DNA of 64,000 nt from a virus. Both the position numbers and the translations under genes were made by a program. Under the pieces are notes generated by a model. It was not told the origin of the DNA. It saw only the letters and a program-made list of their open reading frames with translations, and did not search any database. Location of the stretch: IMG/VR virus record IMGVR_UViG_3300047550_003635. One strand, written 5' to 3'. Each line of letters opens with the position of its first letter. The first letter of the stretch is position 1. Shown one piece after another: positions 6,485-26,410 of the stretch.

Positions 6485-7099
6485 ATGGAAATCGTAATGA
6501 GTGAGCATTATTATTCTTATCCCTTCAACAAAACAACTAAAGACCAAGGATACGCTTTTTGGAAAGATGGTTTTTCTAAAGAAGATATTAAAAAAATAAT
6601 TGAACTTGGTGAATCAAATGAAATTGTTGATGCAAAAGTTGGAAATAATATCGTGGATAGTGATATACGAGAATCTAAGATATCTTGGATTAATCCCTCA
6701 GAAAATTCAATTTGGTTATTTGATAAAATGTGTAACATAGCATCTTTATTAAATAATCAATATTTTGGATTTAATTTAAGTGGTATGTTAGCGTTTCAAT
6801 ATACAATATATAATGCAAATACTGAAACAAAAGGTTTTTATGATTGGCATATTGATAGAATGGGATTGGGTGATGGAAATAATTTACCAAGAAAATTGTC
6901 ACTGATTTTGCAATTGTCGGATCCAATGGATTATGAAGGTGGTGAGGTTTGGATTCACGGACTTTGTAGAGAATGTATGCCAAAAACAAAAGGTCTTGTC
7001 ATTGCATTTCCGGGAAACACATTACATCGTGTAACTCCAGTTACATCAGGCATCAGAAAATCATTAGTAGCTTGGATAGTAGGTCCAGATTTTATCTAA
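6485..7099 (+). CDS. 2OG-Fe(II) dioxygenase (prolyl-4-hydroxylase/PKHD-type)
   Basis: YDWHID (HxD), RKLS, DYEGGE, LHRVTPVTSGIRKSLVAW. Start moved to ATG 6485 (6497 also possible). Confidence 0.9.
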   Translation: MEIVMSEHYYSYPFNKTTKDQGYAFWKDGFSKEDIKKIIELGESNEIVDAKVGNNIVDSDIRESKISWINPSENSIWLFDKMCNIASLLNNQYFGFNLSGMLAFQYTIYNANTETKGFYDWHIDRMGLGDGNNLPRKLSLILQLSDPMDYEGGEVWIHGLCRECMPKTKGLVIAFPGNTLHRVTPVTSGIRKSLVAWIVGPDFI

Positions 7100-7100
7100 T

Positions 7101-7781
7101 ATGGAAACAATAAACCTATTTACAATACCCCTCTTTAAATTCAAATATGATAAGCATGATGAATTTAAACCAAAAGCGATAGAATATTTAACAGATGAAA
7201 AATGTGAATATCCAGTTTCACATAATGGATTGTTTATTAGTAAACCAAATTTACATAAGCATGAAAATTTTATTGATTTTAAAAATTTTACACAGATTTG
7301 TTTAGAACAATCAATGATAGCTTTAGGGTATTATCCAAAAATACAAATAACTGGGATATGGGCAACAAAACATGTTGATAGGGGAAGTCATCATAGACAC
7401 CAACATGGAAATACTTTTTTAATAGGTGTTTATTATTTGAGTGGTAATGAAAAAAGTTCAGGTACAACTTTTTATAATCCAAATAAAAATTTAATTAGTT
7501 ATATTATACCTAAAAAAATTCCAGAGAGTGAAAAAAGAAAGCGCATAATGAAACCTTCTGTAACTAATAAATTTGAAGAAGGAACTTTCATAGTTTTTCC
7601 ATCTTGGTTGGAACATTCAACAAACGTTAATGATTTCGAATTGACTCAATCAGATAGATATATTTTAGGTATAAATTCTATGCCGTTAGGTCCAACCAAC
7701 AATGATTTATATGATAGATTTAATTATCAAGATGTGATGAAAGTGGAGATGATTGAATCGACTAGAGATAGTGTTAAATAA
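7101..7781 (+). CDS. Putative 2OG-Fe(II) oxygenase (TIGR02466-like)
   Basis: LFTIPL N-terminus, HxH (HQH), GVYY, IVFPSWLEH, distal R (DRY). Confidence 0.85.
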   Translation: METINLFTIPLFKFKYDKHDEFKPKAIEYLTDEKCEYPVSHNGLFISKPNLHKHENFIDFKNFTQICLEQSMIALGYYPKIQITGIWATKHVDRGSHHRHQHGNTFLIGVYYLSGNEKSSGTTFYNPNKNLISYIIPKKIPESEKRKRIMKPSVTNKFEEGTFIVFPSWLEHSTNVNDFELTQSDRYILGINSMPLGPTNNDLYDRFNYQDVMKVEMIESTRDSVK

Positions 7782-7787
7782 TTTTTT

Positions 7788-8939
7788 TTATTGTAAAGGA
7801 TATAATTTAGAATTTTTTTTACGAATTTGTTTTGGATATAAATCATCATATAAAATATAATTTTCTATCCAAATTGGATATATATTTTTTTTAAATTTTT
7901 TTAAACAATTTAAATAATTTTTTGAAGATTGACTTGAACTTTGCCAAAACCATTCATCCCTAGTGCTTAAAAAAACTCCATTTGTTGATTTTGTATGTAA
8001 ATTTTTTTTATCGTCATACCAAAGATATATTAAGTTTTTAAAGTCTGTGTCACCCAAATTACCATATGGATTCTTCATCGTTATAAAAATTTCATCATAT
8101 TTTTTAGGTTTTGAATGATATTCCCTATTAATTTTATTTGATAGATATTTTTTTATGATATGTGATTGTTTTATTAAAATATTTGATGATTCAATAGTTG
8201 GTGACCAATAAAATAAATCATTATATACTAACTCATGGAATCCTGTTTTTTGGTCCTTTAGACACATTGTTCCATCTATTATATCAGTAAAATAAAAATA
8301 AAATCTATCTTCATTCACTGAGATTCTAGGTTTTTCACATCCCCATATGAGACATATTTTTTTATTCGAATCAATTATATCAGTCCATTCTGGAATATAT
8401 TCATATAATCTATGTTTTGCTAAACAACTAATTGCGCCAAAATTATTAATCCATTCATAATTATCATTTTCATCATTTAAAAATGTTTCAATGATTTTTT
8501 TGCTTATATCGAATACCCTATGTTTAATTTTTAAATTGTGTTTTTTATTAATATCAATTATTTTAGGACATGCTATTTGATAAATTTCTCTATTAGCAAA
8601 AGAATCTTTACTTCCGCTACCCTCTAAATTTACGAGACTACAAACCTCATCTAATGGAATATTAAAATTCACAAAAGTTTCTAATATATTGTCAGAATCA
8701 CTTCCAGAACTATACATTAGAATTATATAATCATAATTATTTCTTAATTGTTCTGCTTTATTTTTATAAAGTATTTCTAAAGATTCTTCAGGCTCTTTTG
8801 TCCAATCAAATTTCGAGAAAAAATCATCATTATAATACCATTTAACAGAATCGATATCATCAGTCAAGGTCATTATATCATATTTTCGATATGTCTTGAA
8901 GTCTTTATACACATAATAACCATAATTATCACTATCCAT
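7788..8939 (-). CDS. PP-loop (adenine nucleotide alpha-hydrolase-like) protein
   Basis: YDYIILMYSSGSDS resembles the SGGxDS PP-loop; also G.EKP and FYWSP motifs; 383 aa. Confidence 0.55.
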   Translation of the reverse strand: MDSDNYGYYVYKDFKTYRKYDIMTLTDDIDSVKWYYNDDFFSKFDWTKEPEESLEILYKNKAEQLRNNYDYIILMYSSGSDSDNILETFVNFNIPLDEVCSLVNLEGSGSKDSFANREIYQIACPKIIDINKKHNLKIKHRVFDISKKIIETFLNDENDNYEWINNFGAISCLAKHRLYEYIPEWTDIIDSNKKICLIWGCEKPRISVNEDRFYFYFTDIIDGTMCLKDQKTGFHELVYNDLFYWSPTIESSNILIKQSHIIKKYLSNKINREYHSKPKKYDEIFITMKNPYGNLGDTDFKNLIYLWYDDKKNLHTKSTNGVFLSTRDEWFWQSSSQSSKNYLNCLKKFKKNIYPIWIENYILYDDLYPKQIRKKNSKLYPLQ

Positions 8940-9938: not shown

Positions 9939-11585
9939 ATGGCTAATACAGTAATTCAATTAAAATGGTCTGAAGTAACCTCAACACCAGTAACATTAAA
10001 TGTTGCTGAACCTGCTTATTCAAATACTTCTGGTAAATTGTTCATTGGTCGCACAAATGGTGGACCAATTGCCGTCGGTGGTTCATACTATACTGCTTTG
10101 ATTGATGCTGCTACTGATGCAAATACTGCATCTGCAATCGTCAAAAGAGATGCCTCGGGTATTTTTTCGGCAACTGCTGTCAAAGCGAGTTTATATGGAA
10201 ATGCAAACACAGCATCAGCATGGGCAACAGCAAGAACTATAGGTGTTTCAGGTGATGCAAACGGAACTGTTTCTATTGATGGTTCAGCAAATGCAAATAT
10301 TCCATTAACACTCGGTAACTCTGGTGTTGTTGCAGGAACATATGGTGGCGCAACAAATGTTTCATCATTTACCGTTGACAGCAAAGGTAGAATCACTTCT
10401 GCTGCAAATGTCCCAGTTACAATTTCATCAACACTATCATTTGCCGGTGATACAGGTTCAGGTTCTCTTGCACTCGCAACAGATACGTTGACGATTAATG
10501 GTGGAGAAGGAATTGATACGACAGGATTTGACGCAAATAATACGCTTCGTATTGATGTTGACAATACTGTTATTCGTTCAACAGGTAATCAAACAATTAC
10601 TGGTAATGTTTCGATTGTTGGTAATCTAACAATTTCTGGAACATCATCACAGATTAATGTATCGTCATTAAATGTAACAGACCCAATGATTTATTTGGCT
10701 GGTAATAACTATACATCAGATATAGTTGATATCGGTTTTGCTGGTAATTATTATGATGGCGCAACACAAAGACACGCTGGTTGGATAAGAAAATATAATA
10801 CTGGCAATTTCTATGCTTTCTATAACTATACACCAGAACCAGATAATAACGTCATTGATATTACCGATGCAAGTTATAGAAAAGCAAATATTATTGCAAA
10901 CTTTACAGGTGGTAATGTTTCTGGTCTGCTTACTGCAATTGGAGTAAGTGATGGTGGTACAGGTGCAACAACATTTACGTCAGGACAAATTGTTGTTGGA
11001 AATGGAACAGGTGCATTACAATCAATTGCAAACGTAGGAACAGCAGGAACTTATGCGAATGCTGCATATGTTCCAGTTATTACAACAGATGCATATGGGC
11101 GTGTTTCAGGTATAACAAATACAGCAATTGCACTTGCAGCATCAGCAATTACAAGTGGAACATTACCAATTGCGCGTGGTGGTACCAATCAGACATCATT
11201 CACAACTGGTCAAAGAGTAATATTTGATGGAACAAGTCTTGCATCACTTGCAAATACAACGACAACTGTAACTGGTGGATTGTCAGTAGCAAACACAATA
11301 ACATCGTTGACCGTAAACAGTTATGGTGATATTACTGCATATACAGGTGCAGCTATCGCAATTGATACATCACAAATTACTTCTGGAACATTGGGTGTGA
11401 CAAGAGGTGGCACAGGTGCTGCAACATTTACAACAAATGGAATGATTTTTGGTAATGGAACTGGTGCATTACAAGTTACTGCTGCTGCTGGAACATCAGA
11501 CCAAACATGGTCAGCACAATTACTAACAGTAAATGGTTCAGGAACACCTGTTTGGACAACAACATTGAATGGCGGAACATTCTAA
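9939..11585 (+). CDS. Tail fibre protein
   Basis: MANTVIQLK N-terminal domain, GGTG repeats, AGTY...GRV repeats; C-terminal NGGTF. Confidence 0.8.
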   Translation: MANTVIQLKWSEVTSTPVTLNVAEPAYSNTSGKLFIGRTNGGPIAVGGSYYTALIDAATDANTASAIVKRDASGIFSATAVKASLYGNANTASAWATARTIGVSGDANGTVSIDGSANANIPLTLGNSGVVAGTYGGATNVSSFTVDSKGRITSAANVPVTISSTLSFAGDTGSGSLALATDTLTINGGEGIDTTGFDANNTLRIDVDNTVIRSTGNQTITGNVSIVGNLTISGTSSQINVSSLNVTDPMIYLAGNNYTSDIVDIGFAGNYYDGATQRHAGWIRKYNTGNFYAFYNYTPEPDNNVIDITDASYRKANIIANFTGGNVSGLLTAIGVSDGGTGATTFTSGQIVVGNGTGALQSIANVGTAGTYANAAYVPVITTDAYGRVSGITNTAIALAASAITSGTLPIARGGTNQTSFTTGQRVIFDGTSLASLANTTTTVTGGLSVANTITSLTVNSYGDITAYTGAAIAIDTSQITSGTLGVTRGGTGAATFTTNGMIFGNGTGALQVTAAAGTSDQTWSAQLLTVNGSGTPVWTTTLNGGTF

Positions 11586-11604
11586 TTTATGAAAGGGTTT
11601 TATT

Positions 11605-12096
11605 ATGAACGATATCAATTTTATACAATCTTTTGGTGAGATTGCACAAGAAAATTTTATTAGTGTTGTAAAGCAAAATTTATTATTCCAAACACAGATA
11701 AAATTACTTGATGAACAGGTAAAAAAGATACCTGATTTATTGGAAAAGATTGATGATTTGGAAAAAGTAAAAGAAGAATTTCAAACCATTGTTGAAGAAA
11801 ATAATGATTTGAAAAATCAACTCAATAATAAAAATGATATTATTGAGAAAAGCAATAAAGAAGATGCAGAAAAACATAGAATGCAAACTGCTCTAAATAA
11901 TGAAATGAAAAAGAATAGTTTGAATATTGACCTTATTGATTCGCAAAAAATAATAATTGATAATCAGAAAGAATATATACAGCAGCTTGAGAATATGTTA
12001 CCAATTTCAAAAAGAAAAAAATTAGGTTTATCTGTTGATGTTCCAGAAAACAAAGACAATGTTCTTCTGATAAATCAAAACGGTGGAACATTCTAA
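11605..12096 (+). CDS. Coiled-coil protein ending NGGTF (fibre chaperone or connector?)
   Basis: K/E/N/Q-rich heptads; shares the C-terminal motif of the neighbouring fibre proteins. Confidence 0.6.
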   Translation: MNDINFIQSFGEIAQENFISVVKQNLLFQTQIKLLDEQVKKIPDLLEKIDDLEKVKEEFQTIVEENNDLKNQLNNKNDIIEKSNKEDAEKHRMQTALNNEMKKNSLNIDLIDSQKIIIDNQKEYIQQLENMLPISKRKKLGLSVDVPENKDNVLLINQNGGTF

Positions 12097-12099
12097 TAA

Positions 12100-13773
12100 A
12101 TGGCAAATACAGTAATTGCTGTTCGTAGTTCAGGTTCAACAGGAAATACACCATCTCTTGGTGTAATCGCTAATGGTGAATTATCGCTTAACTATGCTGA
12201 TGGTATTTTATACTACAAATCATCATCAAATACATTAGGACAAATCAAAACAACACAAGTTTCTGGATTGAATCAACAAGTTCAATTCAATGACTCTGGT
12301 TCTTTTGGTGGTAATTCTAGTTTAACATTTGATAAATCTACAGGCACTCTTTCAACAAATTTACTTAGAGTTACTCAATCTTCTGGTGATGAAGGTGGTC
12401 AAATTGATTTGGCATTAGCCGCGGCAGCTAATACATCTCTAAATGGAACTGTCGCAATTGATATTTACCAAAATAAATTGAGATTTTTTGAAACAGGTGG
12501 AACAAATCGTGGTGCATACATTGATTTAACTGCTGCAAGCACTGGAGTAGGTAGTAATTTATTATCGGGTGGCGGTGGTGGTTCAGTCACATCTGTTGGT
12601 GGGCAAACTGGTGCAATATCAAACACACAGTTAGTTAGTTTCGTAACAACACCCACATTACCAACAACAGGTAATTTAATTGTATATAATGGAACATCTT
12701 TTACATCACTTGCAAATACTGGAATAGCAGGAACATATGCGAATGCTGCTTATGTTCCAGTAATTACTACGGATGCGTATGGTCGTGTTTCAGGTATAAC
12801 AAATACTGCAATTTCAATCCCAACAACTGCTGTTACTGGTGTATTTGGATTTAGTTCTGGCGGAACAAACGCAACTTCATACACAACTGGTGCATTACTC
12901 ACAAGTAACGGCACAGCAATTGTATCATTGGCAAATACTGGAACAGCAGGAACTTATGGTAATGCAACTTATGTTCCAGTAATTACAACAGATGCATATG
13001 GTCGTGTTACATCAATTGTCAATACTGCAATTTCTGCGAGTGGTTCTTCTGGAAATACATTTAACATTTATAATGTAAATACCCAAATATTTCAAGCAAC
13101 TGCAAATGGAGCACAAACAAGTTTTGAATTAGGATTTACTCCATTCGCATCAAATAATGTTATAGTTACTGCAAATGGTGTTGTTCAATATGATTATACT
13201 GTTGCAGGTTCAACATTAACTTTAAATTTTACTCCACCAAATAATACTCTAATAAGAGCGCAAGCGATAGGTATATCTTCACCTAATGTATTAACTCCTG
13301 TTTTTACAACAGGCAATTTAATAACATCGAATGGCAATACATTAATTTCATCAATTGTCAGTGAATCAAGTGGTAATATAGGAATTGGTATAAGTTTACC
13401 GAGTGTAAAATTAGATGTTGCAGGTAGTTTTAAAATAAGTGGTTCAATAAACGAGGTAATGAATACTGTAACTGCTACAGTTGGAACAACTACATTAGAT
13501 TTATCAACAAATAGCGTTTATAAAATTGTTATGGCAGCAAATACTACTCTCGCATTTAGTAATCCACCAGCATCTGGTATTGAGAGAAATTTTAAATTAT
13601 ATGCCAATACAAATAATGGCAGTAATACTATTACATGGCCTGCTGCGGTTAAGTGGCAATATGGTGCAGCACCAACACAAACTACAACTGCAAATAAAAC
13701 AGACATATATGCTTTTAGCACCAATGATGGTGGTACCACATATTTTGGTTATGTCTCAGGATTAAATTTTTAG
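12100..13773 (+). CDS. Tail fibre protein
   Basis: MANTVIAVR...GELSLNYADG N-terminal domain, QVQFNDSGSFGG, VTSVGGQTGA, GNIGIG...LDVAG; duplicated C-terminal adaptor domain. Confidence 0.8.
   Translation: MANTVIAVRSSGSTGNTPSLGVIANGELSLNYADGILYYKSSSNTLGQIKTTQVSGLNQQVQFNDSGSFGGNSSLTFDKSTGTLSTNLLRVTQSSGDEGGQIDLALAAAANTSLNGTVAIDIYQNKLRFFETGGTNRGAYIDLTAASTGVGSNLLSGGGGGSVTSVGGQTGAISNTQLVSFVTTPTLPTTGNLIVYNGTSFTSLANTGIAGTYANAAYVPVITTDAYGRVSGITNTAISIPTTAVTGVFGFSSGGTNATSYTTGALLTSNGTAIVSLANTGTAGTYGNATYVPVITTDAYGRVTSIVNTAISASGSSGNTFNIYNVNTQIFQATANGAQTSFELGFTPFASNNVIVTANGVVQYDYTVAGSTLTLNFTPPNNTLIRAQAIGISSPNVLTPVFTTGNLITSNGNTLISSIVSESSGNIGIGISLPSVKLDVAGSFKISGSINEVMNTVTATVGTTTLDLSTNSVYKIVMAANTTLAFSNPPASGIERNFKLYANTNNGSNTITWPAAVKWQYGAAPTQTTTANKTDIYAFSTNDGGTTYFGYVSGLNF
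13453..13773 (+). repeat. Second copy of the 321-bp fibre C-terminal domain
   Basis: Aligns without gaps to 5157-5477. Confidence 0.9.
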
Positions 13774-14824: not shown

Positions 14825-16942
14825 ATGTTGGCTGAAGCGTTATTAACTATAAATCCCGCATCAGGTCAATTATTGTATGCATGGGGAAATGATACAGCTG
14901 GACAATTGGGTGATAATTACTCAAATTTTGGTCCACAAGTTGTTGGCGGTTCAAGAGCGCCAGGAATTTCTTCCGTCATTCAAAGTTGGTCAATTGTTTC
15001 GACAGGAGGTTCTCATACAGTAGCAATTCGCTCGGATGGTTTATTATTTGCATGGGGTTTAGGAACAGCAGGACAATTAGGCGATGGAACAACAACAAAC
15101 AAGTCAAGTCCTGTTCAAATAGGTTCTAGTTCTTGGACTGCTGTGTTTGCTGGTGTTGCACACACAATAGCAATTAGGTCAGGTGGAACATTATTTACAT
15201 GGGGTTTAGGAACATCAGGACAATTAGGCGATGGAACAACAACAAACAAGTCAAGTCCTGTTCAAATAGGTTCAAGTTCTTGGACTGCTGTTTCTGCTGG
15301 TAATGCACACACAGCAGCAATCAGGTCTGGTGGAACATTATTTACATGGGGTTATAATGCTAATGGTCGTTTGGGTGATGGAACTACTGTGTCGAAGTCA
15401 AGCCCTGTTCAAATAGGTTCCAGTTCTTGGACTGCTGTATCTGCTGGTATCACGCACACAGTAGCAATCAGGTCAGGTGGAACATTATTTACATGGGGTT
15501 ATAATGCTAATGGTCAATTAGGAGATGGAACTATTTTAGCAAAATCAAGTCCTGTTCAAATAGGTTCAAGTTCTTGGACTGCTGTTTCTGCTGGTGGTGC
15601 ACACACAGCAGCAATCAGGTCTGATGGAGCATTGTTTACATGGGGTCAAGGAGCATCAGGCCAATTAGGTAATGGAAATTCAAGTTTCAATTCACCTGTT
15701 CAAATAGGTTCCAGTTCTTGGACTGCTGTTTCTGCTGGATTATTAAATACAACTTGTATTAGGTCAGATAATACTCTTTGGTCATTTGGTCAAGGTAGCT
15801 TTGGTAGAAATGGTGATATGACTACAATTAATAGGGCATCACCTGTTCAAATAGGAACAACAACAACTTGGAATAAATTATCTATTAGTGGTGGAAATCA
15901 TTCTTTAGCTATCGACACAAATTCAATTCTCTATGCTTGGGGTTTGAATAATGTAGGACAATTAGGTTTTCAAGATAATTTAAGTTCACCGGTTCAAATA
16001 GGAATAAAAAAATGGACTGCTGTTTCTGCTGGTGGTTCACACACAGCAGCAATTAGGTCTGATGGTTTATTATTTGGTTGGGGTAATAATAATAATGGAC
16101 AATTAGGTGATGGAACTCAAATATTTAAATCATCACCTGTTCAAATAGGTTCAAGTTCTTGGACTGCTGTTTCTGTTGGTACCACGCATACAGTAGCAAT
16201 CAGGTCTGGTGGAACACTGTTTGCTTGGGGTTTGAATAACGCAGGTCAATTAGGTGATGGAACTGCTGTATCAAAATCAAGTCCTGTTCAAATAGGCTCC
16301 AGTTCTTGGACTGCTGTTTCTGCTGGTAGTGCACACACAGCAGCAATCAGGTCTGGTGGAACATTATTTACTTGGGGACAAGGAAATGCTGGTCGTTTGG
16401 GTGATGGAACTGCTGTGTCGAAGTCGAGTCCTGTCCAAATAGGTTCAAGTTCTTGGACTGCTGTTTCTGCTGGTGGTTCACACACAGCAGCAATTAGGTC
16501 TGATGGAACATTATTTACATGGGGATATGGAACATATGGAATATTAGGTGATGGAACTCTTGTGACAAAATCAAGTCCTGTTCAAATAGGTTCAAGTTCT
16601 TGGACTGCTGTTTCTGCTGGTAATTTACATACAGCAGCAATCAGGTCTGGTGGAACATTATTTACATGGGGTTTGAATATTAATGGTCAATTAGGTGATG
16701 GAACTGCTGTATCAAAATCAAGTCCTGTTCAAATAGGCTCCAGTTCTTGGACTGCTGTTGCTGCTGGTGCACACACAGCAGCAATTCGTTCAGATAATTT
16801 ATTATTTACATGGTCATTAGGAACATCAGGTCAATTAGGTGATGGAACTGTTGTTACAAAATCATCTCCTGTTCAAATAGGTTCAAGTTCTTGGACCATA
16901 ATATCTACTGGACTAAATCACACAGCAGCAATATCGAAATAA
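14825..16942 (+). CDS. RCC1/BLIP-II repeat protein (about 14 blades, likely receptor-binding tip)
   Basis: 13 PVQIG-containing ~50-aa repeats (SAG..HT.AIRS.G.LF.WG....GQLGDG) plus a degenerate first repeat. Confidence 0.9.
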   Translation: MLAEALLTINPASGQLLYAWGNDTAGQLGDNYSNFGPQVVGGSRAPGISSVIQSWSIVSTGGSHTVAIRSDGLLFAWGLGTAGQLGDGTTTNKSSPVQIGSSSWTAVFAGVAHTIAIRSGGTLFTWGLGTSGQLGDGTTTNKSSPVQIGSSSWTAVSAGNAHTAAIRSGGTLFTWGYNANGRLGDGTTVSKSSPVQIGSSSWTAVSAGITHTVAIRSGGTLFTWGYNANGQLGDGTILAKSSPVQIGSSSWTAVSAGGAHTAAIRSDGALFTWGQGASGQLGNGNSSFNSPVQIGSSSWTAVSAGLLNTTCIRSDNTLWSFGQGSFGRNGDMTTINRASPVQIGTTTTWNKLSISGGNHSLAIDTNSILYAWGLNNVGQLGFQDNLSSPVQIGIKKWTAVSAGGSHTAAIRSDGLLFGWGNNNNGQLGDGTQIFKSSPVQIGSSSWTAVSVGTTHTVAIRSGGTLFAWGLNNAGQLGDGTAVSKSSPVQIGSSSWTAVSAGSAHTAAIRSGGTLFTWGQGNAGRLGDGTAVSKSSPVQIGSSSWTAVSAGGSHTAAIRSDGTLFTWGYGTYGILGDGTLVTKSSPVQIGSSSWTAVSAGNLHTAAIRSGGTLFTWGLNINGQLGDGTAVSKSSPVQIGSSSWTAVAAGAHTAAIRSDNLLFTWSLGTSGQLGDGTVVTKSSPVQIGSSSWTIISTGLNHTAAISK
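14975..16930 (+). repeat. ~150-bp tandem coding repeats (RCC1 blades)
   Basis: Repeated CCTGTTCAAATAGGTTC(A/C/T)AGTTCTTGGACTGCTGT core. Confidence 0.9.
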
Positions 16943-16968: not shown

Positions 16969-18003
16969 ATGCATAAAATTGACCAACAACTTGATTTAAT
17001 GATTCGTGGTAGATTCGAAGAAGGATGGAATCTCAGTCAGCAGATGGAACAAGAACATCCTGATGATTTGAGACATAAATTTAATCGTGCATGGTTTCTA
17101 ATCAATCAGGGCGATTTACAAACAGGATTTCAATTTTTAGAAGCAGGTAGATTTCTAAAAGTTTATGGTTCGCCTAAAATTCCTACAAATAAACCCATCT
17201 GGAATCAAACAGATGATTTAACAAACAAAATAGTAATATTAAATATGGAATGTGGTTTTGGTGACCAGATAATATCAGCAAGATTCGCTACTGAAGTTGC
17301 TAAGAGAGGCGGCAAAGCAATTCTGTGTTGTGAAGCTAGTTTACATCCTATTTTTTCAAGAATACCTGGAGTTCATCAATGTATTCAATTAAAAGATGTT
17401 CAATCAACAAAACATGATTATTGGATTCCTGGATTCAGTTGCAGTTGGATTTTTGGACACACATTTGATAATTTACCTAATTCTCCATACATATCAGCAA
17501 ATCCATTAAGTGTCGATGTTTGGAAAAATATAATTAAAAGTGATAAAATAAAAGTTGGTATTCGTTGGTCTGGTAGCCCATTATTTGAACATCAACAGTT
17601 TAGAATTTTTCCACCAGAACCGTTAATTGATTTGCATAAATATAAAGAAGTTCAATTTTATAGTTTACAGAGAGATACAGACACAAGAGAATTACCCAAT
17701 GAAATAATTGATTTGCAACATCTAATTATTTCATGGGAAGATACTGCTGCTGCAATTCATAATATGGATTTAGTGATTACATCATGCACAAGTATAGCAC
17801 ATTTATCTTCAGCGATGGGTAAACCAACATGGGTAATTGTTCCATTATTACCATATCATATTTGGGCTTATGGTGATAGACATTCTCCATGGTATCAAAA
17901 AACAACAAAAGTTTTTCGTCAAAAAGAATTTGGTAATTGGAATGCAACATTTGAATTATTAGAAAAAGAATTTGTCGAACATTTTAATTTGAAAAAGGAA
18001 TAA
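16969..18003 (+). CDS. Glycosyltransferase, TPR-associated GT9-like
   Basis: ECGFGDQI, KVGIRWSG, WEDTAAAI.NMDLVIT.CTSIAHL..AMGKPTW, WY....FRQ. Confidence 0.85.
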   Translation: MHKIDQQLDLMIRGRFEEGWNLSQQMEQEHPDDLRHKFNRAWFLINQGDLQTGFQFLEAGRFLKVYGSPKIPTNKPIWNQTDDLTNKIVILNMECGFGDQIISARFATEVAKRGGKAILCCEASLHPIFSRIPGVHQCIQLKDVQSTKHDYWIPGFSCSWIFGHTFDNLPNSPYISANPLSVDVWKNIIKSDKIKVGIRWSGSPLFEHQQFRIFPPEPLIDLHKYKEVQFYSLQRDTDTRELPNEIIDLQHLIISWEDTAAAIHNMDLVITSCTSIAHLSSAMGKPTWVIVPLLPYHIWAYGDRHSPWYQKTTKVFRQKEFGNWNATFELLEKEFVEHFNLKKE

Positions 18004-18006
18004 TTT

Positions 18007-18801
18007 ATGAGTGAATTATATTATGTTGCTGGACTCCCAAGGTCTGGTGCAACAATGATGATTAATATATTAAAACAAAATCCACAAATTCATGGCGAAG
18101 CAGTAAGTTCATTGAGTTCTATTTTTAGTTCTGTTTTTTTTAATTGGGACAAAATAGAATTTAGTATTGAATATAATAATGAAAAAGCCAAGATAAATGT
18201 TCTCAAAAGTATTTTAAATAGTTATCACTCACATCACCAAAAACAATTTATTTTTGATAAAGATAGAATGTGGATAACAAGAATTGGTATTCTAGAAGCA
18301 CTATTTGAGAAGAAAGTCAAGATTTTATGCCCGGTAAGAAATCCAGCAGAGATACTCGCATCATTTGAAAAGATAAGAAAAAATAATCCTCTGCAATTAA
18401 CGATGACGGATGAGATATTGGCAGAATCATCATCCATCGCATCTAGAGCATTTCATTACGCTGGTCCAAATGGTGCTTTAGGATTAGCACATGCAGGAAC
18501 ACGTGATGCTGTTACGATGGGATATTTGGACAGATTGTTGTTTATTGACTATAATAGATTTTGTAATAGTCCAAAAAGTCAGTTAAAACGAATATATGAT
18601 TTTTTTGAATTACCTTCTTTTGAGCATGATTTACAAAACATTGAGCAAACAGAAATTTACAATGATTTAGCATCAAAACTTCCTAATTTACATAAAATAA
18701 AACCTAAACTTGACAAAACAACTGTAAATTGTGTTGAATATTTGGGATTAGATTTATATCAACAATACAATCGTGAAATATTTTGGGATGCTTGGATATA
18801 A
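18007..18801 (+). CDS. Sulfotransferase
   Basis: 5'-PSB motif GLPRSGAT and 3'-PB motif RNP....ASF. Confidence 0.85.
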   Translation: MSELYYVAGLPRSGATMMINILKQNPQIHGEAVSSLSSIFSSVFFNWDKIEFSIEYNNEKAKINVLKSILNSYHSHHQKQFIFDKDRMWITRIGILEALFEKKVKILCPVRNPAEILASFEKIRKNNPLQLTMTDEILAESSSIASRAFHYAGPNGALGLAHAGTRDAVTMGYLDRLLFIDYNRFCNSPKSQLKRIYDFFELPSFEHDLQNIEQTEIYNDLASKLPNLHKIKPKLDKTTVNCVEYLGLDLYQQYNREIFWDAWI

Positions 18802-19536
18802 ATGTTTTTTATAGATAATCGTGTTCGTAGAAATGTTTTAGTTTCTACTGACCACGGAATGATGCTTGTAAACAGATTTGATTGTAATCATGAACAAGTT
18901 GGTCATGGTCAATGGCTATTAGACCATGGTAGCGCATCATCAGTTGAAGCGCAAGAGACTGTTTCATGTTTACAAAATATTTCAAGTCCTGTAATATTTG
19001 ATGTGGGTTCAAATATAGGAACATATTCAACATGGCTTACAAAAATATTACCGCAAAGCAAAATATATTGTTTTGAACCACAACGAATAGTTTTTCAAAT
19101 GTTATGTGCAAATATGATGTTAAATAATTTCGATAATTGTTTTGCACATAACATAGCAATTGGAAATAAAGATGATTTTATCGTTATTGACGAACCTGAT
19201 TATGAAAAGCCAGAAGATTTTGGTATTTTTAGTTTGGTTGAAGATAAAATTTTTAATAAATCAAATAAAAAAACAGTAATACCTATAATGAAAATTGATA
19301 CGTTTATTGAAACATATCATATTGAAAAATTAAATTTTATAAAAATAGATGTTGAAGGTATGGATATGGATGTTTTAAAAGGCGCACAAAAAACAATTCA
19401 AAAATATAATCCATTTATATTCATTGAACACTCAGACAATAGAAAATCAATATTAAATGAAATAACTGATTATTTGAGTTTAACTAAGTATGAATTTAAA
19501 GTAATTGGGAATAACGTTTTAGCAAAACCTAAATGA
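18802..19536 (+). CDS. FkbM-family methyltransferase
   Basis: FDVGSNIG, FEPQ, IKIDVEG. Confidence 0.9.
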   Translation: MFFIDNRVRRNVLVSTDHGMMLVNRFDCNHEQVGHGQWLLDHGSASSVEAQETVSCLQNISSPVIFDVGSNIGTYSTWLTKILPQSKIYCFEPQRIVFQMLCANMMLNNFDNCFAHNIAIGNKDDFIVIDEPDYEKPEDFGIFSLVEDKIFNKSNKKTVIPIMKIDTFIETYHIEKLNFIKIDVEGMDMDVLKGAQKTIQKYNPFIFIEHSDNRKSILNEITDYLSLTKYEFKVIGNNVLAKPK

Positions 19537-19546
19537 TGGAGATATA

Positions 19547-20155
19547 ATGATACCAGAACACACAAAATTAAATCTTGGTTGTGGATTTAAAAAATTAAAT
19601 GACCATTGGAATGTTGATGTTGAATCGAAATGTAATCCAGATGAAGTTGTTGATTTAGAAGTGACACCATGGCCATGGGCAGATAATTTTTTCGACAAAA
19701 TAAATGCTGATAATATTCTTGAGCATTTAGGGCAAAATCCAAAAGTATTTACTAATATAATGAAAGAAATGTATCGTATTAGTAAAGATGGTGCAACATG
19801 GTTTATAAATGTTCCTCATCATCGTTGTGATTTATACTGGGATGATTATACTCATGTAAGAATTTTGACACCAAAAACATTTAAAATGTTTGACCAAAAA
19901 ACAAATGTCGAATCGATTAAAAAGAAATTAAGTGATAGCGTTTTTGGTCTTGTTCATGATATTGATATTGAAGTTACTGATGTTTCATATAACATCGTAA
20001 ATTATTGGTTAAATCAGCAAGAAGATGGTATGCTTGCACCAAAACAATTAGACATAAATTTAAATACGCTGGCAAACGTTGCTGAATCTGTAAATATTTT
20101 TATTACTGTTCACAAACCAGGTAGACATTCTTCATTTTTACAGACTGGAAATTAA
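19547..20155 (+). CDS. Class I SAM-dependent methyltransferase-like protein
   Basis: KLNLGCG, DLEVTPWPW, ILEHL, D.TH. Confidence 0.8.
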   Translation: MIPEHTKLNLGCGFKKLNDHWNVDVESKCNPDEVVDLEVTPWPWADNFFDKINADNILEHLGQNPKVFTNIMKEMYRISKDGATWFINVPHHRCDLYWDDYTHVRILTPKTFKMFDQKTNVESIKKKLSDSVFGLVHDIDIEVTDVSYNIVNYWLNQQEDGMLAPKQLDINLNTLANVAESVNIFITVHKPGRHSSFLQTGN

Positions 20156-20156
20156 T

Positions 20157-21014
20157 ATGGCTATAAAAATTTTAATTATGGGTTTGCCTGGTTCAGGTAA
20201 AACAATCATGGCACAAGCATTAAAAAAGTATATTGAGAATAATCTATCATTCACAAATATGCCTGCTAATAAGTTACTGTCATTATCAGAATCATTTCCA
20301 TTAGAATATAAACCTAAAGTTAAATGGTTCAACGCAGATGATATTCGTAAAGAATATAATGATTGGGATTTTAGTAAAGAGGGAAGAATCAGACAAAGTT
20401 TAAGAATGGCAAAATTTGCTATAGAAAGTCTAGCAGATTATGCAATATGTGATTTTGTTGCGCCTTTAGGAGAAATGCGTAATAATTTTAAAGCGGACTG
20501 GACTATTTGGATGGATACCATTGATGAAGGACGATTTGAGGATACTAATAAAATGTTTGTTCCACCCACTGTTTATGATTTTCGTATAACCGAAAAAAAT
20601 GCTGATTTTTGGGCAAAATATGTTGGTGATAGAATCATTGCAGAAAAAAGACGACCTATATTTAATTGGCAAAAAGAAACTGTCCAAATGTTAGGTAGAT
20701 GGCAACCATGGCATAAAGGTCATCGTGCATTATTTGAGCGAGCAGTTGCTAAAACAGGTCAAGTTGTGATACAGATTCGTGATTGTCAAGGATGGAATAA
20801 ATCAAATCCATTTTCAATTGAACATGTAAAAAACATTATTAGAAAAGATTTGGACCCATTATATCAAGGACAATATGAAATTCAAATTGTTCCTAACATA
20901 GTCAATATAACTTATGGACGTGATGTTGGATATAAAATTGAGCAAGAAGTTTTTGATGAAGAAATACACAGTATATCAGCAACGCAAATTCGGAAAGAGA
21001 TGGGATTATCGTGA
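20157..21014 (+). CDS. APS kinase (CysC)-like P-loop domain fused to an HxGH nucleotidyltransferase domain
   Basis: GLPGSGKT, NADDIR, FS.EGR.RQ, CDFVAP; C-terminal GRWQPWHKGH and ISATQIR. Confidence 0.75.
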   Translation: MAIKILIMGLPGSGKTIMAQALKKYIENNLSFTNMPANKLLSLSESFPLEYKPKVKWFNADDIRKEYNDWDFSKEGRIRQSLRMAKFAIESLADYAICDFVAPLGEMRNNFKADWTIWMDTIDEGRFEDTNKMFVPPTVYDFRITEKNADFWAKYVGDRIIAEKRRPIFNWQKETVQMLGRWQPWHKGHRALFERAVAKTGQVVIQIRDCQGWNKSNPFSIEHVKNIIRKDLDPLYQGQYEIQIVPNIVNITYGRDVGYKIEQEVFDEEIHSISATQIRKEMGLS

Positions 21015-22936: not shown

Positions 22937-23931
22937 TGTTAAAAAAAACGCATTTTTATAATAGAACGATTAGAAAAGTTGTTGTTGCATTTGGAACAAT
23001 TTTTAATGATATCTATTTGGTAAGATATACTAATGATGGATTAACTGCTAAAGAAAAATTTAAAGTTCCTTTGGCATATGGTGCAAAAGAAAAATGGTTA
23101 ACAAGAATTACTTCAGACCCAACATTAACTAAATCAGTTGCAACAACAGTTCCCAGAATATCATTTGAATTGACATCGTTGGCATATGACCCAAACAGAA
23201 AACAGCAATCAACGATGCAAAATTTTGCGATTTCATCGAACACTTTTAAAAAACAATACGTTCCAACACCATATAATTTTGATTTTTCGCTTTCGATTTA
23301 TGTTAGAAATACTGAAGATGGCACACAAATTTTAGAACAAATATTACCATTTTTCACACCAGATTTTAATGTGACGGTTGATTTTATACCGACAATGGAC
23401 CAAAAATATGATTTACCCATAATTTTAAATTCAGTAAATAGTCAGATTGAATATGAGGGTGATTTTATGAATACCCGACTGATTATTTGGAATTTAGATT
23501 TTACAGTCAAAGGATATATTTGGCCCGCTGTTGTCGATGCTGATATTATTACTCAAGCAAATACAAATTTATATATTGATACGCAAACAAAAACATTACA
23601 AAAAGTTTTTGTCGATTATGCAAATGGAAATGGAACATTTGCTCAATCAGAAACAATTCGCGTTGATGATAGGAATGTAACCGGGTCATTATATTATTTT
23701 AGTAATAATAATTTGGGTATTTTAATTGCCGAAGATTTGAACAAATTATTAGCTGTAGGTGACATAATTACAGGTGATGCAACAAACTCAAAATATACAG
23801 TTACGTCTTTAGATGTATCACCCGTAAAATCTGTTGCGATTGTTACAACACCAGACCCATCAAATTCATTACCTGACGATGAATATGGTTTTTCAGAAAA
23901 TATAACAGAGTATCCAAATACATTAACATGA
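22936..23931 (+). CDS. gp15: Tail sheath stabiliser/terminator gp15
   Basis: HFYNRTIRK.VVAFGT.FN, KVPLAYG.KEK, QILEQILPFF.P. Confidence 0.93.
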   Translation: MLKKTHFYNRTIRKVVVAFGTIFNDIYLVRYTNDGLTAKEKFKVPLAYGAKEKWLTRITSDPTLTKSVATTVPRISFELTSLAYDPNRKQQSTMQNFAISSNTFKKQYVPTPYNFDFSLSIYVRNTEDGTQILEQILPFFTPDFNVTVDFIPTMDQKYDLPIILNSVNSQIEYEGDFMNTRLIIWNLDFTVKGYIWPAVVDADIITQANTNLYIDTQTKTLQKVFVDYANGNGTFAQSETIRVDDRNVTGSLYYFSNNNLGILIAEDLNKLLAVGDIITGDATNSKYTVTSLDVSPVKSVAIVTTPDPSNSLPDDEYGFSENITEYPNTLT

Positions 23932-24335
23932 GTAAATTAAATGACAATTTATCTGATATATTAGATGTTGAACCTATATCAGAATCAGAAATTATTGATG
24001 ATGAAAAAAATTTGCCAATAGAAGTGTCGTCAAGTGTTATTGAAGATGATACTAATTTTGCCAGAACAAATATTAAAGCAATAATTGAAAAAAGCAATAC
24101 TGCACTTGATGATATTTTAAAAGTTGCTAAAGAGTCTGAACACCCAAGAGCATATGAAGTAGCTGCTAATTTTTTAAAAACTGTTTCAGACATGAATAAA
24201 GATTTGCTTGAATTGCAAAAAACGAAAAAAAGTCTTGAACCAAAAAGTGAATCCACAAAAAATATTAATGTAGATAAAGCAGTTTTTATTGGTTCAACAG
24301 CCGAATTGTTAAAACAAATAAGAGAGAGTAAATAA
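23928..24335 (+). CDS. gp16: Terminase small subunit gp16
   Basis: SEHPRAYEV and FIGSTAELLK motifs. Confidence 0.92.
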   Translation: MSKLNDNLSDILDVEPISESEIIDDEKNLPIEVSSSVIEDDTNFARTNIKAIIEKSNTALDDILKVAKESEHPRAYEVAANFLKTVSDMNKDLLELQKTKKSLEPKSESTKNINVDKAVFIGSTAELLKQIRESK

Positions 24336-24773
24336 ATGGAAACATTAATTCAACAGATGAAAGTTATTTTAGCAACAAATTTTGGTCTATATTTGAAATC
24401 ACACAATTATCATTGGAACATTGAGGGTTCTAATTTTCCACAATTTCATGATTTTTTAAATACATTTTATAGTGCTGTATGGGCACAAACAGATTTAATC
24501 GCTGAACATATTAGAATGTTAGATTCATATGCACCGGGTTCATTTACAAGATTTTCAGAACTTTCAGACGTTCAAGAAGAATTGAATGTTCCAAATGCAT
24601 TGACAATGATGAGAAATTTAAAACAAGATAATGATACATTTATTATTCATCTTCGTGCTGGTATTGTTGCTGCTGAAAATGCTGATGAACCAGCAGTTTC
24701 AAATTTTCTTCAAGACCTTTTAGGTGCTCATCAAAAACAAGCATGGATGCTTCGTAGTATTATAAAAGAGTAA
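24336..24773 (+). CDS. dps: Dps/ferritin-like DNA-protection protein
   Basis: KSHNYHWNIEG..F...H; D.IAEHIR; H.K.AWML. Confidence 0.92.
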   Translation: METLIQQMKVILATNFGLYLKSHNYHWNIEGSNFPQFHDFLNTFYSAVWAQTDLIAEHIRMLDSYAPGSFTRFSELSDVQEELNVPNALTMMRNLKQDNDTFIIHLRAGIVAAENADEPAVSNFLQDLLGAHQKQAWMLRSIIKE

Positions 24774-24775
24774 TA

Positions 24776-26410
24776 ATGGAAATTGATGGTTACATGGGGA
24801 ATGCGCGGTTAAAACGCGCAGGTGTTGAGTTATCATTTACCGAAGAACAGACCAAAGAATTCATCAAATGTTCTTTAGACCCAGTTTATTTTATTAAGAC
24901 ATATGTAAAGATTGTCAATGTTGACTTGGGTCTTGTGCCTTTTGATATGTGGCCATTTCAAGAAAAAATGGTTCAAGATTTCCATGCAAATCGTTTCTGT
25001 ATATCAAAAATGCCACGCCAAGTTGGTAAAACAACTACAACAGTTGGCTATATGTTATGGTGTGCATTATTCATTGAAGAATACTCAATAGCCATTCTTG
25101 CCAATAAAGGTTCACTTGCACGTGAGATATTGAGCAGACTTCAAAAAGCATATGAATATTTACCATTATGGCTGCAACAAGGTATCATAACATGGAACAA
25201 AGGTAATATTGAACTTGAAAATGGTTCAAAAGTATTTGCTTATTCAACATCAGCAGCAGGTGTTCGTGGAGGAACTTATAATCTGATATTTATGGATGAG
25301 TTTGCATTCGTTCCACAAAATATTGCTGCTGACTTTTTTCAATCAACATATCCAGTTATATCATCTGGTAAAACATCAAAGGTTATCATTGTTTCAACAC
25401 CAAATGGATTGAATCAGTTTTATAAAATGTGGACTGACGCTATCGAAAAACGCTCAACATATGTACCTATTGAAGTTCATTGGTCAATGGTTCCTGGTCG
25501 TGATGAGAAATGGAAAGAAGAAACGATTCGTAACACAAGTGAAGAACAGTTCCGTGTCGAGTTTGAAACAGAATTTATTGGTTCATCTGCAACACTTATC
25601 TCGGGTGCAAAACTTCGTGCATTAGCATTCCATAATCCAATATCTTCTGTTGAAGGTTTTGATGTCTATGAAGAACCAATCAAAGGGCATAGTTATGTTG
25701 CATCTGTTGATTGTTCAGAGGGTGTTGGACACGATTATTCAACTGTTAATGTTATTGATGTTACACAATTACCGTATCGACAGGTTGCAAAATATCGCAG
25801 CAATAAAGTCGCATTGATGATTTTTCCAACGATTATTTACTCAATATGCGTAAAATACAATCATGCATTCGCGCTGGTCGAAATCAATAATGTCGGTCAA
25901 CAAGTTGTAGATATTCTCCATTTTGATTTGGAGTATGAAAACGTATTTAAGATTGAGATGAATCGTGTCAAAGGGCAAACAATTTCTGGTGGTTTCAAAA
26001 AAGCAGCAAAATTTGGTGTCAGAACAACTAAGTCAGTTAAAAAAATTGGTTGTGCTAACTTAAAAACATTAGTTGAAAATGATAAATTGATTATTAATGA
26101 TTTTGATACTATTGCTGAAATGAACACTTTTGCAAGGGTTCGTGATTCATATGCAGCCGAAGAAGGTAATAATGATGATTTAGTGATGGGGTTAGTTCTA
26201 TTTTCGTGGTTATCAGCACAGACATATTTCCGTGATTCTACAAATATGGACATACGAAAATTGCTTGTGCAAGAGCAAGAAACATGGAATGAAGAAAATT
26301 TGATGCCCGTGGGTATTGTTGATGATGGTCTTAAAGAAGAAGTAACTGTTGATTCACAGAATAATGATATTTGGACTGAGCGTGGCTATACAAATTCTTC
26401 AACTTTCTAA
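24776..26410 (+). CDS. gp17: Terminase large subunit gp17
   Basis: PRQVGKT, FMDEFAF, STPNG.N.FY, nuclease DDLVM. Confidence 0.97.
   Translation: MEIDGYMGNARLKRAGVELSFTEEQTKEFIKCSLDPVYFIKTYVKIVNVDLGLVPFDMWPFQEKMVQDFHANRFCISKMPRQVGKTTTTVGYMLWCALFIEEYSIAILANKGSLAREILSRLQKAYEYLPLWLQQGIITWNKGNIELENGSKVFAYSTSAAGVRGGTYNLIFMDEFAFVPQNIAADFFQSTYPVISSGKTSKVIIVSTPNGLNQFYKMWTDAIEKRSTYVPIEVHWSMVPGRDEKWKEETIRNTSEEQFRVEFETEFIGSSATLISGAKLRALAFHNPISSVEGFDVYEEPIKGHSYVASVDCSEGVGHDYSTVNVIDVTQLPYRQVAKYRSNKVALMIFPTIIYSICVKYNHAFALVEINNVGQQVVDILHFDLEYENVFKIEMNRVKGQTISGGFKKAAKFGVRTTKSVKKIGCANLKTLVENDKLIINDFDTIAEMNTFARVRDSYAAEEGNNDDLVMGLVLFSWLSAQTYFRDSTNMDIRKLLVQEQETWNEENLMPVGIVDDGLKEEVTVDSQNNDIWTERGYTNSSTF

Follow-up and report, generated by a model that had tools for sequence, protein, structure and literature searches.

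The DNA analysed here is a 64,000-nucleotide stretch of viral sequence (referred to as the window), which belongs to the 133-kb record of a T4-like myophage. At 20157-21014 on the plus strand it carries an open, ATG-started reading frame of 285 aa, across which the reverse strand is stop-rich. The gene follows a cassette on the same strand that opens with a 344-aa ORF (16969-18003), for which the only similarity is a faint one to heptosyltransferases (GT9, E 0.0085). Next comes a sulfotransferase gene (18007-18801; PF00685, 4e-13; PF13469, 6e-13), which a profile search of the record identified as the single sulfotransferase of the virus and which is the presumed consumer of PAPS. The original prediction, a reading of this stretch as the gene for a minimal PAPS synthase, had described this sulfotransferase as a neighbor. 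It does exist, but it is not adjacent, since the genes for an FkbM-type methyltransferase (18802-19536) and a second methyltransferase (19547-20155) lie between it and the 285-aa gene. Upstream of the cassette are tail-fibre genes and an RCC1-repeat gene, and directly 3′ of the 285-aa gene are gp14, gp15, the small and large terminase genes and the sheath gene. The RCC1-repeat protein has 705 aa (14825-16942) and comes immediately after two tail-fibre-like genes; RCC1 proteins are also encoded near the gene in 16 related phage loci. As a separate observation, a Dps/ferritin-like gene (24336-24773; PF00210, 1e-21) sits amid the terminase genes, between a small-terminase-like gene (23928-24335) and a large-terminase-sized ORF (24776-26410), which is an unusual site for an iron-storage or DNA-protection protein. 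The phage collection that we searched contained no near-identical DNA to the window.

The 285-aa protein is a fusion of two domains, and its AF2 model has a pLDDT of 91.7. Residues 1-165 (20157-20651) form a P-loop kinase domain of the APS kinase family that lacks a lid, as assigned by PF01583, profile and Foldseek matches, and residues 166-285 (20652-21011) form a mini HxGH nucleotidyltransferase (NT) domain of the NadM/NMNAT lineage, the proposed ATP sulfurylase. Within the kinase domain are the P-loop GLPGSGKT (residues 9-16, 20181-20204), with an invariant K15, and the motif NADDIR (residues 59-64, 20331-20348), which aligns with LDGDNxR of CysC and in which D61 and R64 are conserved. Between them, after the first helix, lies a 24-aa insertion (residues 30-53, 20244-20315) that is confined to close marine-phage relatives and is modeled with a pLDDT of about 70. 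The NT domain contains the HxGH motif GRWQPWHKGH (residues 180-189, 20694-20723), in which G, R, Q, H and H are invariant, a family-specific YGRDVGY (residues 253-259, 20913-20933) with an invariant Gly-Arg, and ISATQIR (residues 273-279, 20973-20993), which is the ISxTxxR motif of the superfamily. The ORF and the four motifs on which the prediction was built (GLPGSGKT, NADDIR, GRWQPWHKGH and ISATQIR) are thus confirmed in the translation, and they are conserved among homologues, so they are not chance occurrences.

The protein belongs to a large family: it matches more than 7,900 clusters built at 90% identity, and 853 representatives at E ≤ 1e-10. The only label returned by the protein atlas was "putative cytidyltransferase". 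Among 50 homologues with 32-82% identity, K15, R64, G180, R181, Q183, H186, H189, G254, R255, G258 and R279 are invariant, and GRxQPxHxGH, YGRxVGY and the Arg of ISATxIR are constant down to 32% identity. HxGH, ISxTxxR and the Gly-Arg pair are also invariant in NT domains that occur as stand-alone proteins of 110-140 aa. Two family members have other architectures: a 395-aa protein (P0148) has a DUF4118 membrane domain ahead of the kinase-NT unit, and in a 389-aa protein (P0266; L011:2133-3302) the kinase is fused to a PF00483 sugar-phosphate nucleotidyltransferase, with a CTP_transf_3 gene adjoining.

By both profile and fold, the N-terminal 165 residues belong to the APS kinase family. The match of the window's protein to PF01583 is modest (24.7 bits against a cut-off of 21.1) and covers only profile positions 32-94 of 152, and its relatives score 34-61 bits. 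When a profile of the kinase domain was compared with PDB sequences, each of the top 26 was either an APS kinase or a bifunctional enzyme with an APS-kinase(-like) domain (E 2e-14 to 1e-6), and other P-loop kinases ranked only below these; the alignment spans positions 2-92 of the 136 in the profile. No sugar kinase was matched by this profile. Foldseek with the whole model likewise returned APS kinases as nearly all of the top matches (4rfv, 7yq1 and 1m7g; TM to target 0.56-0.72), and the predicted CysC-like character of this domain is upheld. D61 and R64 align on DGDxxR, and F72 and R77 on GFSxxDR, of CysC and PAPSS1, and DFVxP (P103) aligns on FISP of CysC; all five residues are invariant or nearly so. 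From structures of the Penicillium chrysogenum enzyme and PAPSS1, we take the Asp of DGDxxR to be catalytic and the aligned Arg, Phe and Arg to be contacts to APS. The profile alignments end before the position of the lid, and the lid segment itself (RDPKGLYKKAR in the CysC part of the viral protein P0243, described below) is absent, with about 5 residues between WMDTI and RFEDTN in its place.

Sequence comparison places the origin of the C-terminal 120 residues within the HxGH superfamily, in its NadM/archaeal NMNAT branch. These enzymes are the best sequence relatives of the domain (E 9e-5 in a single-sequence search, and 5e-11 when a profile was used), and their GRFQPFHxGH, NPF and SxTxxR motifs are present in it. 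The scores against TIGR01527/NF002243 are 27-30 bits, against cut-offs of 127-181, and the match covers only the first ~70 model positions. An alignment with MJ0541 runs through strands 1-3 and resumes only with the GY strand and SxTxxR, and the profile alignment to 1f9a skips chain residues ~70-107. The roughly 25-30 residues that separate strand 3 from the GY strand in NMNAT are therefore missing, and this is the case in all family members. Archaeal NMNAT structures presumably place the helix that holds the nicotinamide of NMN within the missing stretch, and its loss would leave room for a small acceptor only. No family-level homology to Sat was found: PF01747 had no match in the virus record at E 0.1, and when the NT profile was aligned with the catalytic domains of five Sat proteins, hhalign reported a probability of 17%. 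There was also no homology of the NT domain to CysD. Sat sequences carry QxRNPxHxxH, VGRDHAG and ISGTxxR, and the NT domain carries HxGH and ISATxIR. The caveat attached to the original prediction, that the HxGH motif is closer to that of NMN adenylyltransferase than to Sat, therefore stands.

Folded separately, the NT domain was modeled with a pLDDT of 93, although with three DSSP strands only. VIA-align gave Z scores of 9.5 for PPAT, 9.4 for NadM, 9.2 for NMNAT, 8.7 for NadR and 8.3 for Thermus Sat (1v47, 113 of 120 residues aligned), and Foldseek with this domain returned only weak matches over ~78 residues. The comparison of a predicted structure with Sat and NadM had been proposed as a check; with all comparators at Z 8.3-9.5, the fold of this domain does not separate the hypotheses. 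YGRDVGY resembles the GRD loop of Sat, a likeness that we do not count as evidence, because the Asp varies (D, G, K or E) and hhalign, at its 17% probability, puts the Sat GRD elsewhere. The invariant Gly-Arg of YGRxVGY is instead a candidate anion site, possibly for sulfate.

In phage genomes, the fusion gene always ends a variable island of glycosyl-, methyl-, carbamoyl- and sulfotransferases. Sulfotransferases are the commonest neighbor family in the 84 phage loci, with 25 loci by clustering and 32 by iterative HMM. A nearby sulfotransferase is seen in ~30-35% of the phage loci. Where at least 5 kb of upstream flank was available, 17 of 57 phage loci had a sulfotransferase within 5 kb, and conversely 10 of the 21 loci with close relatives of the window's sulfotransferase carry the fusion gene. 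Putative GT-sulfotransferase fusions related to the ORF at 16969-18003 are present in other loci. The iterative sulfotransferase profile also picked up that GT-like ORF itself, and it matched phage ORFs of 590-615 aa (in L029, L030, L032, L039, L044, L062 and L090) that may be fusions of the same type of GT-like module with a sulfotransferase domain. Nine phage loci have a separate, ordinary cytidylyltransferase gene beside the fusion gene; in one of them it lies immediately 3′ (L090:9371-9805; PF01467, 71 bits, 144 aa), and the other eight are arranged likewise. The Stenotrophomonas phages DLP_6 and Bhz60 and a 236-kb relative had no match to PF13469 or PF00685. In the Sano-like phage Bhz60 (L002:5565-6741) the fusion gene adjoins a NADAR-domain gene, and in Sano-like siphoviruses, Bhz60 included, a DNA methyltransferase gene is also beside it and the genome has no recognizable sulfotransferase.

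The NT domain also pairs with canonical CysC. In the protein P0243, found on 4 independent contigs, an NT domain with 46% identity is followed by a full-length canonical CysC (PF01583, 212 bits). Further cases were reached by starting from sulfotransferases instead of from the NT domain. On L229 and L244, both of them viral contigs, the NT domain has a gene of its own immediately beside a CysC gene of 214-215 bits, and the pair lies 1.3-1.4 kb from a sulfotransferase gene. In L229 the stop and start codons of the two genes overlap, a translationally coupled arrangement. At a third locus (L202) the gene order is NT, short CysC, sulfotransferase. On L229, which is a 464-kb contig, a GIY-YIG/NUMOD homing-endonuclease gene (11290-12174) is located between the sulfotransferase and the NT-cysC pair.

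Bacterial homologues are found in similar company. In Bradyrhizobium two TPR-sulfotransferases are directly upstream of the gene, in Inquilinus a sulfotransferase lies at a distance of 2.6 kb, and a sulfotransferase accompanies the gene in seven loci from soil alphaproteobacteria. Two of the bacterial neighbor clusters (1 and 10) were discarded as spurious, because they consisted of ORFs that overlie the gene out of frame or in antisense, in genomes of high GC content. In two SAR11 genomes (L096 and L097) the gene is part of a same-strand string upstream of a gene for an AprM-like protein of 263 aa. In L097 this is directly followed by aprB-aprA, and L096 ends inside the AprM-like gene. In another alphaproteobacterium, the place just before the AprM-like gene and aprB is taken by a canonical Sat. 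The arrangement of the two domains also varies: they are fused in phages and some bacteria, and in SAR86 and most SAR11 genomes each has its own gene, with an overlap of a few bases between the two (136 aa and 124 aa; L154:8004-8781 in the complete SAR86 genome). The upstream gene at that SAR86 locus (7055-7954) is YeiH-like, from a family of putative sulfate export transporters, at 108 bits, which is below the cut-off.

The distribution of the NT domain was compared across genomes, many of which are MAGs. At least 10 SAR86 genomes have a sulfotransferase directly upstream of the kinase and NT genes. In 61 genomes of the SAR86 order, 26 had both NT and a sulfotransferase, 2 had NT only, 6 had a sulfotransferase only and 27 had neither (Fisher p 2.6e-9, uncorrected for phylogeny). 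Sat was present in 1 of the 61, as was a strong PAPS_reduct (CysD-type) gene, and the genome with the latter is without NT. The complete SAR86 chromosome encodes two strong sulfotransferases, and no Sat, CysD/CysH-type gene or AprA was detected on it, nor any APS kinase beyond the kinase and NT pair. In the Pelagibacterales the presence of NT was not correlated with that of a PF13469 sulfotransferase (34 genomes with both, 13 with NT only, 9 with the sulfotransferase only and 5 with neither; p 0.74). Strong CysD-type genes in this order are, however, confined to genomes that lack NT, occurring in 5 of the 9 genomes with a sulfotransferase and no NT, as opposed to 0 of the 34 with both (p 1.3e-4, uncorrected for phylogeny).

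Together, these comparisons suggest that the fusion gene probably encodes a PAPS synthase with a new sulfurylase module. The CysC fusions and operons, the sulfotransferase neighborhoods and the sulfotransferase-bearing genomes without a known ATP sulfurylase all support the sulfate-activation function that was originally put forward. These comparisons establish what the two domains are, which motifs are conserved, and the links to CysC, sulfotransferases and aprBA in gene context and distribution; that both domains are catalytic, that sulfate is the acceptor and what becomes sulfated are inferred from them. We propose that the NT domain would move AMP from ATP onto sulfate, yielding APS and PPi, with HxGH stabilizing the transition state and ISxTxxR gripping the leaving pyrophosphate. 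Sulfate could be held by some of the invariant residues R181, Q183, R208, N217 and R255, which are candidates for the anion site, and so small an acceptor is consistent with the loss of the acceptor helices of NMNAT. The lid-less kinase domain would then phosphorylate the 3′-OH of APS to give PAPS, pulling the unfavorable sulfurylase step forward. Finally, PAPS would be passed to the sulfotransferase of the glycosyl-, sulfo- and methyl-transfer cassette between the tail-fibre and neck genes.

We also lean, with somewhat less assurance, towards a broader proposal: that the 110-aa NadM-derived domain is a third, previously unrecognized and smallest class of ATP sulfurylase, that with the lid-less APS kinase it provides the only sulfate activation of SAR86 and much of SAR11, and that T4-like marine phages carry it as an auxiliary gene to sulfate glycans during infection. 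To our knowledge, SAR86 and SAR11 have been thought to lack sulfate activation.

Other explanations were kept under consideration because of the phage loci poor in sulfotransferases, the NADAR neighbor, the fusion in P0266 and the 13 SAR11 genomes that have NT without PF13469. It is unlikely, although conceivable, that the protein serves the glycan cassette with some other substrate, either as a HldE/TagD-like pairing of a sugar or polyol kinase with a nucleotidyltransferase that makes an ADP- or CDP-linked donor, or by forming a 3′-phosphorylated adenylyl compound in the manner of CoA synthase. Its position at the end of a variable glycosyl/methyl/carbamoyl/sulfotransferase island would fit such a role, as would the many loci without a sulfotransferase, the joining of the kinase to a sugar-phosphate nucleotidyltransferase in P0266 and the rank of PPAT as the top VIA-align match (Z 9.5). 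However, the kinase has retained the residues at the positions of the APS contacts in CysC, its profile matches no sugar kinase, canonical CysC is a partner of the NT domain, and the bacterial contexts are sulfotransferases, aprBA and the absence of Sat and CysD as opposed to glycan genes. The separate, ordinary cytidylyltransferase in nine loci also indicates that the role of making a nucleotide donor is already filled there.

We regard it as rather improbable that only the kinase half is catalytic, acting as an APS kinase on APS supplied by oxidative AprBA or another enzyme, with the NT domain being a remnant that binds nucleotide, regulates or scaffolds. The modeled NT domain is cut down to three DSSP strands, a reduction that casts doubt on its catalytic competence; the SAR11 gene has aprBA nearby, whose product can turn sulfite into APS; and fungal ATP sulfurylases, in which an APS-kinase-like domain is purely regulatory, provide a precedent. 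Against this, HxGH, ISxTxxR and the Gly-Arg are invariant down to ~30% identity and in the stand-alone forms as well, which is the pattern expected of a working active site, and no AprA, Sat or CysD that could supply APS is encoded in the complete SAR86 genome. Least probable, and in our view very unlikely, is a function in NAD+ salvage or reconstitution that follows the logic of NadR in swapped order (nicotinamide riboside to NMN to NAD+), possibly to counter an NAD-depleting defence. In its favor, the NT domain is closest to NadM/NMNAT by sequence and nearly so by fold, and the Sano-like phages have their NADAR-domain neighbor and no sulfotransferase. Every member of the family, however, has lost the ~25-30 NMNAT residues that presumably include the nicotinamide-binding helix, the NMNAT model scores fall far below their cut-offs (27-30 bits against 127-181), the kinase resembles APS kinase and not the ribosylnicotinamide kinase type, and NAD metabolism offers no reason for the domain to be paired with canonical CysC. 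None of these alternatives accounts for the pairing with canonical CysC or for the SAR86 pattern.

If the protein is indeed a PAPS synthase, its NT domain would represent a new family of enzymes that form APS from ATP and sulfate, which is a central step in sulfur metabolism, and would explain how streamlined ocean bacteria without Sat or CysDN use PAPS-dependent sulfotransferases. Abundant marine myophages would bring their own supply of sulfate donor, along with sulfo-, glycosyl- and methyltransferases, in a host-recognition island, and a PAPS synthase in a single chain of 285 aa would be a practical tool for enzymatic sulfation. Our literature searches returned no paper describing the kinase-NT fusion. 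A paper on pelagimyophages describes the island, and it contains no word starting with "sulf".

The known systems closest to the proposed enzyme are the bifunctional PAPS synthases, with which it would share the logic of coupling the sulfurylase step to phosphorylation of APS. Metazoan PAPSS1/2 have the same order, with an N-terminal APS kinase followed by an HxGH domain, and the kinase domain is homologous to those of PAPSS and of the Aquifex and fungal Sat-APSK fusions (1x6v, 2ofw and 2gks are among the matches). The fusion protein is, however, 285 aa long as compared to ~620 aa for PAPSS, its kinase is without a lid, and its sulfurylase module has no PUA-like domain, QxRNPxHxxH motif or PF01747 match. 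With CysC (PF01583) the kinase half has in common the P-loop, the D-x-x-R, F...R and F-x-x-P motifs and the fold, and it differs in the missing lid and, in the marine-phage subgroup, in the 24-aa insertion after the first helix. NadM/archaeal NMNAT (TIGR01527; 2qjt, 1f9a) is the closest sequence relative of the NT domain, with Z scores of 9.2-9.4. In contrast to NadM, the domain lacks helix C, part of strand 4, helix D and the C-terminal helical tail, has the invariant YGRxVGY in place of the lost segments, and has CysC and sulfotransferases, not NAD genes, as its genomic partners. Sat-type ATP sulfurylase is a member of the same HxGH superfamily, and the reaction that we propose for the NT domain is the same. 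Sat or CysDN and the NT domain also occupy the same genomic places, by CysC, by sulfotransferases and upstream of aprBA. Whereas Sat has an N-terminal PUA-like domain and a catalytic domain of ~200 aa, the NT domain has 110-120 aa, about half of that, and is sometimes encoded as a stand-alone protein.
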